NCBI RefSeq assembly: GCF_013122565.1
Contig: NZ_CP053258.1
Direction: 5' to 3' (one strand)
Source of the DNA: Escherichia coli
GTDB lineage: Bacteria > Pseudomonadota > Gammaproteobacteria > Enterobacterales > Enterobacteriaceae
DNA length: 64,000 nucleotides
Shown here: positions 1 to 9,719 of the stretch, one piece after another
How the letters are laid out: every line of letters starts with the position of its first letter
How positions within the stretch are numbered: the first letter of the stretch is position 1
Notes under the pieces: model-generated
What the model was told of the DNA's origin: nothing
Seen by the model: only the letters and a program-made list of their open reading frames with translations
Databases searched by the model: none
Made by a program: the position numbers and the translations under genes

Positions 1-949
1 TAAAGGTCGTGGTCCGGTTGCTACCGTTCTGGTACGTGAAGGTACTCTGCACAAGGGCGATATCGTTCTGTGTGGCTTCGAATACGGTCGTGTTCGTGCG
101 ATGCGTAACGAACTGGGTCAGGAAGTGCTGGAAGCGGGTCCGTCCATTCCGGTGGAAATCCTCGGCCTGTCCGGCGTTCCGGCTGCGGGTGATGAAGTTA
201 CCGTTGTACGTGACGAGAAGAAAGCGCGTGAAGTTGCACTCTATCGTCAGGGTAAATTCCGCGAAGTTAAACTGGCGCGTCAGCAGAAATCTAAACTCGA
301 GAACATGTTTGCCAACATGACCGAAGGCGAAGTTCACGAAGTGAATATCGTCCTGAAGGCAGACGTACAGGGTTCTGTGGAAGCGATCTCCGACTCCTTG
401 CTGAAACTGTCTACTGACGAAGTTAAAGTGAAGATCATCGGTTCTGGCGTAGGTGGTATCACCGAAACCGACGCCACCCTGGCTGCGGCGTCCAACGCCA
501 TCCTGGTTGGCTTCAACGTACGTGCTGATGCCTCTGCACGTAAAGTGATTGAAGCGGAAAGCCTGGATCTGCGTTACTACTCCGTCATCTATAACCTGAT
601 CGACGAAGTGAAAGCGGCGATGAGCGGTATGCTGTCTCCGGAACTGAAACAGCAGATTATCGGTCTGGCGGAAGTTCGTGACGTGTTCAAATCGCCGAAA
701 TTTGGTGCCATCGCAGGCTGTATGGTTACCGAAGGTGTGGTTAAACGTCACAACCCGATCCGCGTTCTGCGTGACAACGTGGTTATCTATGAAGGCGAGC
801 TGGAGTCCCTGCGCCGCTTCAAAGATGACGTTAACGAAGTCCGTAACGGTATGGAATGTGGTATCGGCGTTAAGAACTACAACGACGTCCGCACTGGCGA
901 TGTGATCGAAGTATTCGAAATCATCGAGATCCAACGTACCATCGCTTAA
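1..949 (+). CDS. infB: Translation initiation factor IF-2, C-terminal part (5' end lies outside the window)
   Basis: Open frame runs from the window edge to the stop at 947-949; the translation (…[30 protein letters not shown]…IIEIQRTIA) matches the IF-2 C-terminal domain; synteny with rbfA-truB-rpsO-pnp. Confidence 0.95.
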
Positions 950-5367: not shown

Positions 5368-6252
5368 ATGAAGCCTTTTTTGCGCTGGTGTTTCGTTGCG
5401 ACAGCACTTACGCTTGCAGGATGCAGTAATACTTCCTGGCGTAAAAGTGAAGTCCTCGCGGTACCATTGCAACCGACTTTACAGCAGGAAGTGATTCTGG
5501 CACGTATGGAACAAATCCTTGCCAGTCGGGCTTTAACCGATGACGAACGCGCACAGCTTTTATATGAGCGCGGAGTGTTGTATGATAGTCTCGGTCTGAG
5601 GGCATTAGCGCGTAACGATTTTTCGCAAGCGCTGGCAATCCGACCGGATATGCCTGAAGTATTCAATTACTTAGGCATATATTTAACGCAGGCAGGCAAT
5701 TTTGATGCTGCCTATGAAGCGTTTGATTCTGTACTTGAGCTTGATCCAACTTACAACTACGCGCACTTGAATCGCGGGATCGCATTATATTACGGCGGTC
5801 GTGACAAGTTAGCGCAAGATGATCTGCTGGCGTTTTATCAAGACGATCCCAATGATCCTTTCCGTAGTCTGTGGCTTTATCTCGCCGAGCAGAAGCTCGA
5901 TGAGAAGCAGGCTAAAGAAGTGTTGAAACAGCATTTCGAAAAATCGGATAAGGAACAGTGGGGATGGAACATTGTCGAGTTCTACCTGGGCAACATTAGC
6001 GAACAAACGTTAATGGAAAGGCTCAAGGCGGACGCAACGGATAACACCTCGCTCGCTGAGCATCTCAGTGAAACCAACTTCTATTTAGGTAAGTACTACC
6101 TAAGTCTGGGGGATTTGGACAGCGCCACGGCACTGTTCAAACTGGCGGTTGCCAACAACGTTCATAACTTTGTTGAGCACCGATACGCATTGTTGGAATT
6201 ATCGCTCCTGGGCCAGGACCAAGATGACCTGGCAGAATCGGACCAGCAATAG
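5368..6252 (+). CDS. nlpI: Lipoprotein NlpI (294 aa, TPR repeats)
   Basis: Track ORF; lipobox LTLAGC near the N-terminus; synteny pnp-nlpI-deaD. Confidence 0.95.
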
Positions 6253-6431
6253 CTGACGTACACATCAGCCCGTAATCTTTTTTGATTGCCATCACCTTAA
6301 CGGGTGAGGGCGTTGTTGTTCGTTAATACACCTACTTTGAGCCGGTTCACACTTTTCAATGAAAATTGCTGATCAATTTCATGATGAGTTATGTAGACTG
6401 GCCGCCATTAATTTTGAGGCACACGTACTAC

Positions 6432-8321
6432 ATGGCTGAATTCGAAACCACTTTTGCAGATCTGGGCCTGAAGGCTCCTATCCTTGAAGCCCTTAACGAT
6501 CTGGGTTACGAAAAACCATCTCCAATTCAGGCAGAGTGTATTCCACATCTGCTGAATGGCCGCGACGTTCTGGGTATGGCCCAGACGGGGAGCGGAAAAA
6601 CTGCAGCATTCTCTTTACCTCTGCTGCAGAATCTTGATCCTGAGCTGAAAGCACCACAGATTCTGGTGCTGGCACCGACCCGCGAACTGGCGGTACAGGT
6701 TGCTGAAGCAATGACGGATTTCTCTAAACACATGCGCGGCGTAAACGTGGTTGCCCTGTACGGCGGCCAGCGTTATGACGTGCAATTACGCGCCCTGCGT
6801 CAGGGGCCGCAGATCGTTGTCGGTACTCCGGGCCGTCTGCTGGACCACCTGAAACGTGGCACTCTGGACCTCTCTAAACTGAGCGGCCTGGTTCTGGATG
6901 AAGCTGACGAAATGCTGCGCATGGGCTTCATCGAAGACGTTGAAACCATTATGGCGCAGATACCGGAAGGTCATCAGACCGCTCTGTTCTCTGCAACCAT
7001 GCCGGAAGCGATTCGTCGCATTACCCGCCGCTTTATGAAAGAGCCGCAGGAAGTGCGCATTCAGTCCAGCGTGACTACCCGTCCTGACATCAGCCAGAGC
7101 TACTGGACTGTCTGGGGTATGCGTAAAAACGAAGCACTGGTACGTTTCCTGGAAGCGGAAGATTTTGATGCGGCGATTATCTTCGTTCGTACCAAAAATG
7201 CGACTCTGGAAGTGGCTGAAGCTCTTGAGCGTAACGGCTACAACAGCGCCGCGCTGAACGGTGACATGAACCAGGCGCTGCGTGAGCAGACACTGGAACG
7301 CCTGAAAGATGGTCGTCTGGACATCCTGATTGCGACCGACGTTGCAGCCCGTGGCCTGGACGTTGAGCGTATCAGCCTTGTAGTTAACTACGATATCCCG
7401 ATGGATTCTGAGTCTTACGTTCACCGTATCGGTCGTACCGGTCGTGCGGGTCGTGCTGGCCGCGCGCTGCTGTTCGTTGAGAACCGCGAGCGTCGTCTGC
7501 TGCGCAACATTGAACGTACTATGAAGCTGACTATTCCGGAAGTAGAACTGCCGAACGCAGAACTGCTGGGCAAACGCCGTCTGGAAAAATTCGCCGCTAA
7601 AGTACAGCAGCAGCTGGAAAGCAGCGATCTGGATCAATACCGCGCACTGCTGAGCAAAATTCAGCCGACTGCAGAAGGTGAAGAGCTGGATCTCGAAACT
7701 CTGGCTGCGGCACTGCTGAAAATGGCACAGGGTGAACGTACTCTGATTGTTCCGCCTGATGCGCCGATGCGTCCGAAACGTGAATTCCGTGACCGTGATG
7801 ACCGTGGTCCGCGCGATCGTAACGACCGTGGCCCGCGTGGCGACCGTGAAGATCGTCCGCGTCGTGAACGTCGTGATGTTGGTGACATGCAGCTGTACCG
7901 CATTGAAGTGGGCCGCGATGATGGTGTTGAAGTTCGTCATATCGTTGGCGCGATTGCTAACGAAGGCGACATCAGCAGCCGTTACATCGGTAACATCAAG
8001 CTGTTTGCTTCTCACTCCACCATCGAACTGCCGAAAGGTATGCCGGGTGAAGTGCTGCAACACTTTACGCGTACTCGCATTCTCAACAAGCCGATGAATA
8101 TGCAGTTACTGGGCGATGCACAGCCGCATACTGGCGGAGAGCGTCGTGGCGGTGGTCGTGGTTTCGGTGGCGAGCGTCGTGAAGGTGGTCGTAACTTCAG
8201 CGGTGAACGCCGTGAAGGTGGTCGTGGTGATGGTCGCCGTTTTAGCGGTGAACGTCGTGAAGGCCGCGCTCCGCGTCGTGATGACTCTACCGGTCGTCGT
8301 CGTTTTGGTGGTGATGCGTAA
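6432..8321 (+). CDS. deaD: DEAD-box cold-shock RNA helicase DeaD/CsdA (629 aa)
   Basis: [33 protein letters not shown]…, GSGKT and DEAD motifs, RGG/RD-rich C-terminal tail; start chosen at MAEFETTF within track ORF 6366..8321. Confidence 0.93.
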
Positions 8322-8363
8322 TCATCGCTGAACAGCGAAAACAATCTGTAAAATAATATATAC

Positions 8364-8396
8364 AGCCCCGATTTTAACAATCGGGGCTTTTTTTCT
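8364..8396 (+). terminator. deaD rho-independent terminator
   Basis: agccccgattttaacaatcggggct followed by a T7 run. Confidence 0.6.
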
Positions 8397-8474
8397 GTCT
8401 TTTGTACTCGTGTACTGGTACAGTGCAATGCATAACAACGCAGTCGCACTATTTTTCACTGGAGAGAAGCCCTC

Positions 8475-9719
8475 ATGGCAACACTAACCACCACCCAAAC
8501 GTCACCGTCGCTGCTTGGCGGCGTGGTGATTATCGGCGGCACCATTATTGGCGCAGGGATGTTTTCTCTGCCAGTGGTCATGTCCGGTGCGTGGTTCTTC
8601 TGGTCAATGGCGGCGCTGATCTTCACCTGGTTCTGTATGCTGCATTCCGGCTTGATGATTCTGGAAGCTAACCTGAATTACCGAATCGGTTCGAGTTTTG
8701 ACACCATCACCAAAGATTTGCTGGGCAAAGGCTGGAACGTGGTCAACGGTATTTCCATTGCCTTTGTGCTCTATATCCTGACCTATGCCTATATTTCTGC
8801 CAGCGGTTCGATTCTGCATCATACCTTCGCAGAGATGTCATTGAACGTCCCGGCACGGGCAGCGGGTTTTGGTTTTGCACTGTTGGTGGCGTTTGTGGTG
8901 TGGTTGAGCACTAAAGCCGTCAGCCGCATGACGGCGATTGTGCTGGGGGCGAAAGTCATTACCTTCTTCCTCACCTTCGGTAGCCTGCTGGGGCATGTGC
9001 AGCCAGCGACATTGTTCAACGTCGCCGAAAGCAATGCATCTTATGCGCCGTATTTGCTGATGACGCTGCCGTTCTGCCTGGCGTCGTTTGGTTATCACGG
9101 TAACGTGCCGAGCCTGATGAAGTATTACGGCAAAGATCCGAAAACCATCGTGAAATGCCTGGTGTACGGTACGCTGATGGCACTGGCGCTGTATACCATC
9201 TGGTTGCTGGCGACGATGGGCAACATCCCTCGTCCGGAGTTTATCGGCATCGCCGAGAAGGGCGGTAACATTGATGTGCTGGTACAGGCGTTAAGCGGCG
9301 TGCTGAACAGCCGTAGTCTGGACCTTCTGCTGGTCGTGTTCTCAAATTTTGCGGTAGCGAGTTCGTTCCTCGGCGTAACGCTGGGCCTGTTTGACTATCT
9401 GGCAGACCTGTTTGGTTTTGACGACTCAGCCCTGGGCCGCTTTAAAACGGCATTGCTGACCTTTGCCCCGCCTGTCGTGGGTGGCCTGCTGTTCCCGAAT
9501 GGATTCCTGTACGCCATTGGTTATGCTGGCTTAGCGGCTACCATCTGGGCGGCAATCGTTCCGGCACTGCTGGCCCGCGCATCGCGTAAACGCTTTGGCA
9601 GCCCGAAATTCCGCGTCTGGGGCGGCAAGCCGATGATCGCGCTGATTCTGGTCTTCGGTGTTGGCAACGCACTGGTGCATATCTTATCGAGCTTTAATTT
9701 GCTGCCGGTGTATCAGTAA
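8475..9719 (+). CDS. mtr: Tryptophan-specific permease Mtr (414 aa)
   Basis: Track ORF; polytopic membrane protein [44 protein letters not shown]…; synteny. Confidence 0.95.

Follow-up and report, generated by a model that had tools for sequence, protein, structure and literature searches.

The E. coli protein DeaD (CsdA), Hera of Thermus thermophilus and CshA of Geobacillus and Staphylococcus share a helicase core, a dimerization domain (DD) and an RRM-like RNA-binding domain (RBD), and dimeric helicases of the Hera/CshA type are anchored to RNA mainly by the RBD (PMC11850223). The same is described for CsdA in the section of PMC11850223 that reports Xu et al. 2017, which gives a Kd of ~1 uM for the RBD alone and of 28 uM for the dimeric core, as compared with 0.07 uM for full-length CsdA. 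Annealing has been proposed to reside in the basic CTD (PMC3590231), and a secondary nonspecific RNA site has been proposed in the C-terminal extension (PMC1616957). Full-length DeaD also undergoes phase separation in vitro, and inside cells it gathers into foci (PMC12758526).

The basic C-terminal tails of Mss116p and CYT-19 resemble that of DeaD in being unstructured basic extensions and, in the work as cited by PMC3590231, tether the core to RNA nonspecifically. In the RhlE helicases it is the diversity of the C-terminal IDR that defines functional specificity (PMC11260450). By contrast with all of these tails, which directly follow the core, that of DeaD follows a folded RBD and has internal tandem repeats. 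The RGG/RG tails of LAF-1, DDX4 and Ded1/DDX3 are, like that of DeaD, R/G-rich and disordered, flank the helicase core and have been linked to RNA binding and phase separation (for DeaD, PMC12758526). The DeaD tail nevertheless differs from these eukaryotic tails in having no Di-RGG or Tri-RGG, one RGG and one Di-RG, and in being a polyampholyte, with E and D interspersed. Eukaryotic RGG boxes are regulated by arginine methylation, which is not known to occur in the DeaD tail. At the DNA level, the repeat region of tolA consists of in-frame coding repeats that vary among E. coli strains and are used in MLVA schemes; the tolA and deaD repeats are alike in their imperfect units, multiples of 3 in length, in their slippage-type in-frame alleles and in lying in an apparently tolerant, disordered region, but variation of deaD (~4% of genomes) is much rarer than that of tolA-type repeats.

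The window analysed here is a stretch of 64,000 nt of E. coli contig NZ_CP053258.1 (assembly GCF_013122565.1), in which a sequence-only reading had singled out positions 7780-8300 as two blocks of imperfect tandem repeats encoding the C-terminal tail of DeaD. These positions fall in the 3' third of deaD/csdA, which codes for a cold-shock dimeric DEAD-box RNA helicase. The gene had been named correctly: its product matches the NCBIfam equivalog PRK11634 (NF008642) with 1397.5 bits against a cutoff of 989 (protein 1-629 aligned to model 1-628), is the same sequence as DEAD_ECOLI, the UniProt entry of E. coli K-12 DeaD/CsdA, and is encoded in the order nlpI-yrbN-deaD-mtr, the context expected of an orthologue. 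Five Pfam domains, all above their cutoffs, follow one another in the protein (DEAD 30-196, Helicase_C 232-340, DeaD_dimer 374-443, DbpA 489-558 and DeaD_C 568-629), and PDB 5GI4 matches the DD part and 5B88 the RBD part. The window is collinear with E. coli at 98.6% identity over 25 kb; K-12 has the same gene order, and its deaD shows ~3% nucleotide divergence from that of the window, all synonymous in the part compared (20 of 20 differences at nt 7401-8318). In a scan of positions 6000-9000 no Rfam family reached threshold, and sub-threshold matches fell on the terminator only. The coordinates of all features are collected in Table 1.

Table 1. Features of the deaD locus and its surroundings (positions in the window).
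Feature	Position	Strand	Remarks
nlpI-type ORF	5368-6252		
yrbN	6359-6439		8-nt overlap with the deaD start
deaD (csdA) coding sequence	6432-8321	+	629 aa + stop; PRK11634, Pfam domains, identity to DEAD_ECOLI
antisense ORF	6786-8063	-	425 aa
antisense ORF	7661-7903	-	
other-frame ORF	7747-8097	+	
R/D/P-rich polyampholyte linker	7764-7883	+	aa 445-484; between DD and RBD; contains the first quoted peptide
24-nt segment (REDRPRRE)	7845-7868	+	tandem duplication in APEC E18005 (alignment to K-12)
folded RRM-like DbpA-type RBD	7884-8120	+	aa 485-563; non-repetitive; parts the two blocks
antisense ORF	8012-8449	-	145 aa, P/R/S-rich; by-product
V-rich alternative-frame ORF	8116-8331	+	71 aa, stop-free; by-product of a CGT/GGT/GAA codon run, not a gene
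true C-terminal tail, predicted disordered	8121-8318	+	aa 564-629; R/G/E-rich, net charge +8
repeat unit 1	8133-8165	+	11 aa, aa 568-578
repeat unit 2	8166-8201	+	12 aa, aa 579-590; the +12 nt allele duplicates GTCGTGAAGGYG here
longest exact direct repeat of the window's tail, CGTGAAGGTGGTCGT	8178-8225	+	copies at 8178 and 8211, 33 nt apart, in frame
repeat unit 3	8202-8246	+	15 aa, aa 591-605; 12-nt internal expansion
partial repeat unit 4, GERREGR	8247-8267	+	aa 606-612
deaD intrinsic terminator	8364-8395	+	10-bp stem, 6 G-C pairs, T run
mtr-type ORF	8475-9719		

Both peptides quoted in the sequence-only reading are encoded exactly in the ORF ending at 8321, the first (29 aa; aa 454-482, nt 7791-7877) in the linker and the second (45 aa; aa 568-612, nt 8133-8267) in the tail. 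Between them lies the RBD, which matches Pfam DbpA (E=1.3e-20), whose aligned residues are identical to those of PDB 5B88 (covering aa 481-564) and for which AF2 gives a pLDDT of 77-86 and a beta-alpha-beta-beta-alpha-beta fold. As non-repetitive sequence of a folded domain occupies ~7884-8120, positions 7780-8300 are not one continuous repeat or tail: the R/G/E block does belong to the C-terminal tail, but the RD block is an interdomain linker that precedes the RBD. In the DeaD sequence the DD-RBD linker is a long R/D-rich polyampholyte and the post-RBD tail is made of GERR repeats, which may set DeaD apart from Hera and CshA.

The linker consists of 34% R and 20% D, with 64% charged residues and a net charge of +4, and it is absent from the PDB constructs, of which 5GI4 stops at aa 445 and 5B88 begins at aa 481. 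AF2 gives the linker a pLDDT of 45-51 (43-sequence alignment) and the tail, which lies outside the matched PDB chains, a pLDDT of ~41, both without secondary structure; aa 445-484 and aa 564-629 are predicted to be intrinsically disordered. The tail also matches PF12343 DeaD_C ("DeaD helicase C-terminal disordered region") with 45.6 bits against a cutoff of 23.3, aa 568-629 aligning with positions 1-62 of the 62 of the profile.

The description of both blocks as imperfect tandem repeats holds for the tail but is weak for the RD block. In the tail, TRF finds a 33-nt period (2.9 copies, 75% matches, score 113, at 8134-8228), a repeat search finds four copies spaced by 33, 33 and 12 nt, and the 11-residue shift has p<0.0005 in residue shuffles and ~0.003-0.005 in codon shuffles within the block. 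The 33-nt (11-aa) periodicity of the tail is genuine and goes beyond composition, the unit being (G)GERR(E/G)GGR-x-F. In the RD block, where CGT accounts for 14 of the 15 Arg codons, TRF detects a 9-nt period only, with a score of 31 (floor 30); an 8-residue shift (DRGPR...DRGPR) has p~0.01 for amino acids in the shuffle test, and codon-level periodicity in the shuffles is nothing above chance. Being weakly repetitive, the RD block is better called a low-complexity R/D/P composition than a DNA repeat array. The label "RGG-rich" proved to be a loose one. An RGG/RG box is reportedly defined, by Thandapani et al. in 2013, as a Di-RGG, Tri-RGG or Tri-RG with spacers of 0-4 residues. Scanned in full by regex, the DeaD protein has no Tri-RGG, Di-RGG or Tri-RG, a single RGG, and Di-RG only as RGPRG at 466 and RGGGRG at 572, and DeaD does not contain an RGG/RG box of the eukaryotic type.

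The exact direct repeats of at least 10 nt in the window's tail region are all spaced by a multiple of 3, and the longest exact repeat measures 15 nt there and 18 nt in K-12-type alleles. The pair of CGTGAAGGTGGTCGT copies is a substrate for a one-unit slip. The 18-nt direct repeat of K-12-type alleles that would mediate the -78 nt deletion (see below) is broken in the window by synonymous SNPs.

A comparison of strains, from which repeat-number variation had been predicted, with a uniform length as the refuting outcome, did reveal length variants, namely tail alleles of +12, +15, -33, -78 and -132 nt and rare linker alleles of +24 and -9 nt. In the 5,425 complete E. coli genomes that were surveyed, with BLAST junction queries by which alleles without a specific query may be under-counted, the canonical length is present in ~96% and variants in ~4%. 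The +12 nt allele occurs in ~158 of these genomes, among them E. coli 042 and strains with the labels ST69 and ST70; it was counted with a 713-nt haplotype query at 99% identity or more, the identity band of the junction query alone failing on this allele by the joining of two-piece matches, and 60 of 60 carriers among the matches listed are 100% identical across the 713 nt. The +15 nt allele, a duplication of GGERR, was found in 48 genomes, several of them labelled ST361, and all 48 have an identical 80-nt junction. Each of these two insertions is found in a limited set of strains, essentially as a single haplotype. A deletion of 132 nt flanked by GCGTCGTG was found in one genome only, and a deletion of 33 nt (618 aa), seen in draft assemblies, removes exactly one unit. 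In the linker, strain 2015C-4498 has lost 9 nt within or adjoining the 24-nt segment listed in Table 1 (alignment to K-12). All variants seen are in frame, most are bounded by short direct repeats, and the intact variant proteins have 585, 603, 618, 626, 633, 634 and 637 aa (-44, -26, -11, -3, +4, +5 and +8 residues). The length differences between strains sit in the repeat, as in a coding VNTR; in the literature we found no report of deaD as a typing locus, in a search confounded by the common word "dead".

The -78 nt allele, which lies between perfect 18-nt repeats GGCGAACGTCGTGAAGGC, was found in 21 of the 5,425 genomes using a junction-specific 32-mer unable to seed on undeleted alleles; BLAST coverage of the tail is unreliable for deletions, as the repeat units probably let pieces extend. 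A perfect 18-nt repeat is retained in the six of six -78 alleles inspected. Haplotypes encoding the resulting 603-aa protein differ at 14-41 sites per 1812 nt, the junction has at least four distinct flanking haplotypes, and full-length alleles, such as that of ATCC 11775, share 99.6-99.7% identity with one of them. Five assemblies of a public contig collection, together with the complete genome EC0026B_R4, suggest that this 26-aa deletion is probably recurrent, a possible alternative to its repeated origin being recombination that carries a short tract between haplotypes.

The polymorphism is rare, mostly carried by single haplotypes and not hypervariable. The DeaD of Salmonella has the same length, the same number of units and an identical RD block and, at nt 7401-8318 of the window, all differences from K-12 are synonymous, from which we take the amino-acid sequence to be otherwise under purifying selection. 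Between genera, in a comparison made on filtered short database fragments, many of them frameshifted, the tail ranges from ~62 to 97 residues, the number of GERRE units differs and Klebsiella-type tails have a duplicated APRRDD motif, and the unit structure with its phased F residues is conserved.

We consider it very probable that the region is the 3' third of deaD, composed of an R/D/P linker, a folded RBD and a repeat-built R/G/E tail, with alleles produced by in-frame slippage and with by-product ORFs in the other frames. The claim that there is no true repeat, and that a biased R, G, D and E composition written in a narrow set of codons imitates one, is nearly correct for the RD block, given its codon periodicity within shuffles, its TRF score and its CGT usage; for the region as a whole it is unlikely, as the order of the tail exceeds composition both for residues and for codons (~0.003), the phased-F unit structure is kept across genera and the observed indels add or remove whole units. 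Considerably less likely is a contingency (phase-variable) locus, in which frequent slippage would toggle DeaD or yield fast-changing variants: direct repeats are present, there are several length alleles and the -78 deletion looks recurrent, but the repeats are without exception spaced, and the observed indels sized, in multiples of 3, the great majority of complete genomes are canonical, the identity of the +12 and +15 carriers points to stable inheritance, and the units, of 9-33 nt and imperfect, do not resemble the homopolymer or tetranucleotide tracts that known contingency loci have. It is scarcely credible that the length variants are artefacts of repeat collapse or expansion during assembly. 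Repeats are a classic source of assembly errors, and public data contain many frameshifted deaD fragments; these variants, however, are found in RefSeq genomes at the complete level, which come from many different laboratories and countries, the common ones recur with the same junction in restricted strains (48, ~158 and 21), the repeats of 10-18 nt are far below any read length and 1,073 blocks of the contig collection are indexed for exactly the 603-aa protein.

The ORFs on both strands exist and read as spurious, as had been claimed: in the five other frames the fraction of synonymous-codon shuffles with stop-free runs at least as long as those observed is 0.07-0.65, and no Rfam family reaches threshold in the region, which supports their being by-products of composition. 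That the V-rich ORF or one of the two long antisense ORFs (71, 145 and 425 aa) is a real overlapping gene, or that programmed frameshifting gives access to the V-rich frame, is very unlikely; in its favour are the length of these ORFs and the many database "proteins" that start in the DeaD frame and run on into the V-rich one. Such entries are short and change frame at many different places, scattered as with sequencing, assembly or gene-calling errors and without a single conserved slippery site; in addition, the shuffles give similar stop-free runs in all five frames and the V-rich products are extreme low-complexity sequence. Phase variation, an overlapping gene or programmed frameshift, and assembly artefact were all rejected on this evidence.

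For the repeat-built tail of deaD, we propose that a 33-nt unit, now present in about four copies, was duplicated in tandem, and that replication slippage or short-homology recombination between the repeats would then lead to gains and losses; as the repeat spacing is always a multiple of 3, such events would change whole codons. The linker could act as a flexible tether, so that the RBD holds on to RNA and both helicase cores of the dimer work on duplexes close by, as its composition and the analogy with CsdA, Hera and CshA suggest. By composition and analogy also, the basic tail may make sequence-nonspecific electrostatic contacts with RNA and could support annealing, and by its multivalent R, G and F residues it probably contributes to the reported phase separation of DeaD. 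Isolates from which 26 or 44 tail residues have been removed are viable natural strains, so that most of the repeat block is dispensable under at least some conditions.

The feature is ordinary and already described, to which the allele census and the probably recurrent 26-aa deletion are minor additions, and its practical value is mainly for annotating genomes and controlling their quality. Spurious ORF calls on both strands are explained by the region, as are the frameshifted database entries named "DbpA RNA binding domain-containing protein, partial"; lengths of DeaD from 585 to 637 aa are to be taken as genuine alleles and not as errors. The -78 nt allele offers a clean example of what would be slippage dependent on repeat length, the repeat of the window's allele being broken by SNPs. 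The 26-aa deletion is seen on unrelated haplotypes, a 5-aa insertion in 48 genomes and a 4-aa insertion in ~158, and from these observations comes the idea, improbable in our view, that tail length is a selected, tunable trait whose alleles shift the valency and charge of the tail. If it were true, RNA tethering, the condensate threshold, growth in the cold or antibiotic persistence would change with the allele. The natural allelic series could in any event be used to probe what the disordered segments of DeaD do in RNA binding, in ribosome assembly in the cold and in condensates.

The gene carrying both repeat blocks was named deaD by the sequence-only reading, and this identification holds: its 629-aa product, translated from the ATG at 6432, scores 1397 bits against the NCBIfam DeaD equivalog (cutoff 989), is identical to UniProt DEAD_ECOLI in an exact-sequence look-up and has the expected neighbours, an nlpI-type ORF upstream, yrbN at its start and mtr downstream. 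The small ORF yrbN (26 codons) overlaps the deaD ATG by 8 nt, as RefSeq likewise annotates in E. coli (Pfam PF28071 YrbN), and this overlap suggests translational coupling. Mechanical ORF calling begins at a TTG 22 codons 5' of the accepted ATG and yields 651 aa; start annotation is also inconsistent across public records, some entries being a 650-aa DeaD. The stop is followed after 43 nt by a strong intrinsic terminator (10-bp stem, 6 G-C pairs, TTTTTTT). Its loop and adjoining intergenic bases vary among E. coli lineages, and strain 24A16CRGN010 carries a diverged intergenic stretch there with a 2-nt deletion. Across 25 kb the window aligns collinearly with E. coli chromosomes (best identity 98.6%); the closest complete genome is 98.6% identical over 1-25000 and 98.1% over the deaD 3' end (7700-8400), despite a DeaD protein equal to that of K-12. 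The window therefore derives from a lineage of E. coli/Shigella type that the collection of 5,426 complete genomes lacks.

Coordinates of deaD, its domains and adjoining features
Feature	Nucleotides	Residues	Strand	Source
yrbN	6359-6439		+	
Mechanical ORF	6366-8321		+	ORF calling
deaD	6432-8321	1-629	+	ORF calling, translation
Pfam DEAD		30-196	+	domain search of DeaD
Pfam Helicase_C		232-340	+	domain search of DeaD
Pfam DeaD_dimer		374-443	+	domain search of DeaD
First quoted peptide (block 1)	7791-7877	454-482	+	translation
Pfam DbpA RNA-binding domain		489-558	+	domain search of DeaD
Pfam DeaD_C, "C-terminal disordered region"		568-629	+	domain search of DeaD
Second quoted peptide (block 2)	8133-8267	568-612	+	translation
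Block 2 tandem array	8134-8228		+	TRF
Terminator	8364-8395		+	
Longest antisense ORF	6786-8063		-	ORF calling

The two peptides quoted in that reading are encoded exactly, and its claim of imperfect tandem repeats stands for the second block and only weakly for the first. The tandem repeat of block 2, the GERR-rich C-terminal segment, is imperfect but genuine: TRF finds a period of 33 nt (2.9 copies, 75% matches, score 113), a repeat search gives four copies spaced 33, 33 and 12 nt apart, and the protein reads as units of 11, 12 and 15 aa followed by GERREGR. Its 11-residue register is far beyond composition in within-block shuffles (p<0.0005 for residues, about 0.003-0.005 for codons), and the longest exact direct repeat in the DeaD tail as encoded in the window is 15 nt, at 8178 and 8211, 33 nt apart. 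Block 1, the RD block, yields only a 9-nt TRF period (score 31) and an 8-residue shift (DRGPR...DRGPR) with p of about 0.01 at residue level, and the same shuffles gave no codon-level periodicity above chance; low-complexity R/D/P sequence is the better description.

The blocks had been taken as one C-terminal tail, which is true of block 2 only. PDB 5B88 matches aa 481-564 with full identity, and 5GI4 stops at aa 445; in an AlphaFold2 model of aa 445-629 (alignment of 43 sequences), aa 485-563 adopt a beta-alpha-beta-beta-alpha-beta fold with pLDDT 77-86, and aa 445-484 and 564-629 lack secondary structure (pLDDT 41-51). The blocks are thus separated by a folded RRM-like RNA-binding domain (RBD), and together with the PDB coverage this makes block 1 the linker between dimerization domain and RBD (64% charged residues, net charge +4) and block 2 the tail (30% Gly, net charge +8). 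The term "RGG-rich" was overstated, as a motif scan of DeaD met a single RGG tripeptide and no Di-RGG, Tri-RGG or Tri-RG pattern.

The predicted length polymorphism between strains was found, as in-frame alleles in both tail and linker. Among 5,426 complete E. coli genomes, surveyed by targeted queries and alignments, 5,425 have the region; the remaining one has no deaD 3' match, and another has a second copy of the region on a plasmid. All alleles combined, a DeaD of other than 629 aa occurs in about 4% of complete genomes, and none of the length variants found in this way was out of frame.

Length alleles of deaD relative to the canonical gene
Allele	Change	Protein	Occurrence
+12 nt	tandem duplication of GTCGTGAAGGYG (+RREG/REGG)	633 aa	158 genomes at least 99% identical to one haplotype
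+15 nt	GGERR duplicated	634 aa	48 genomes, several labelled ST361
-78 nt	between two perfect 18-nt repeats GGCGAACGTCGTGAAGGC; 26 aa lost	603 aa	21 genomes
-132 nt	flanks GCGTCGTG; entire repeat block lost	585 aa	1 genome, 4 contigs overall
-33 nt	one unit lost	618 aa	draft and read-derived assemblies
+24 nt, linker	tandem duplication, REDRPRRE x2	637 aa	seen in one genome, APEC E18005
-9 nt, linker	deletion	626 aa	seen in one genome, 2015C-4498

Carriers of the +12 allele include E. coli 042 and strains labelled ST69 and ST70; the 60 carriers listed do not differ at any of 713 nt, and the +15 allele has an identical 80-nt junction in 48 of 48 carriers. Each being essentially one haplotype, these two look like single events passed on by descent. 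For the -78 allele, independent deletions at the same 18-nt repeat are the most economical reading: haplotypes encoding the identical 603-aa protein differ pairwise by 14-41 synonymous changes per 1812 nt and show four distinct SNP combinations within 60 nt of the junction; one is 99.6-99.7% identical to full-length alleles such as that of ATCC 11775, and another is 100% identical to a carrier set whose haplotype is within 1% of 2,350 genomes. In the window, synonymous changes break this 18-nt repeat, of which 11 nt still match exactly. The 603-aa protein is also named from Shigella boydii, and the contig collection indexes it in 1,073 blocks. Since four laboratory-derived EC0026B isolates (NZ_OX460316.1 and three sibling records) all have the deletion, their parent presumably had it too, before the experiment. 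Among the four 618-aa haplotypes there are 12-30 differing sites per 1857 nt, so this allele may come from an older, diverged lineage, not a recent clone. An L-to-Q change upstream of the linker (EELDLE to EEQDLE) is common to the 618-aa and 626-aa alleles.

Five ORFs of 71-425 aa overlap the deaD 3' region on both strands and had been considered spurious, with which our analysis agrees. When synonymous codons were permuted within deaD, 0.07-0.65 of shuffles, depending on the frame, gave stop-free runs at least as long as those observed; for the longest ORF, the antisense one covering most of deaD (425 aa), the shuffle mean was 268 codons and the observed length was reached in 9%. An Rfam scan of the deaD region gave no family above threshold. 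The other-frame ORFs are by-products of the CGT/GGT/GAA/GAC codon run. Many short database "proteins" pass from the DeaD frame into a V-rich frame at varied switch points, as frameshift errors would. Such shifted deaD 3' ends make up dozens of public entries titled "DbpA RNA binding domain-containing protein, partial". A few of them lie on multi-megabase contigs; these could be genuine frameshift pseudogenes or long-read errors left uncorrected.

Between the window and K-12, all 20 differences over nt 7401-8318 are synonymous, 8 of them in the tail. Salmonella DeaD has 629 aa, an unchanged unit count and an identical RD block. Other Enterobacterales keep the anchors (a 23-residue stretch then ...F; APRRDD; RRRFG-DA) with varying numbers of units and spacers, giving tails of about 62-97 residues, and Klebsiella-type tails duplicate APRRDD. 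These observations point to segments constrained in composition and motif, yet able to expand and contract over longer times.

Published work reports CsdA to be a stable dimer, like Hera and CshA. According to PMC11850223, on Xu et al. (2017), the RBD is its chief RNA anchor (Kd about 1 uM for the RBD, 0.07 uM for full-length CsdA and 28 uM for the dimeric core), and a tail-less core+DD+RRM construct exceeds the dimeric core in activity. A secondary nonspecific site for RNA binding and annealing has been proposed in the basic C-terminal region (PMC1616957, PMC3590231). DeaD undergoes phase separation in vitro, and in cells it forms dynamic foci (PMC12758526). By analogy, the RD linker could serve as a flexible tether and the GERR tail as a putative multivalent electrostatic module for RNA and self-interaction.

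With these two corrections, the RD block being a linker and "RGG-rich" too strong, the earlier observation and interpretation were essentially right. The disordered C-terminal feature is already known (Pfam PF12343); what is new is small and descriptive, namely the count of alleles and a 26-aa deletion that appears to recur. Much of the tail is dispensable for viability, as shown by natural strains that lack 26 or 44 of its residues.
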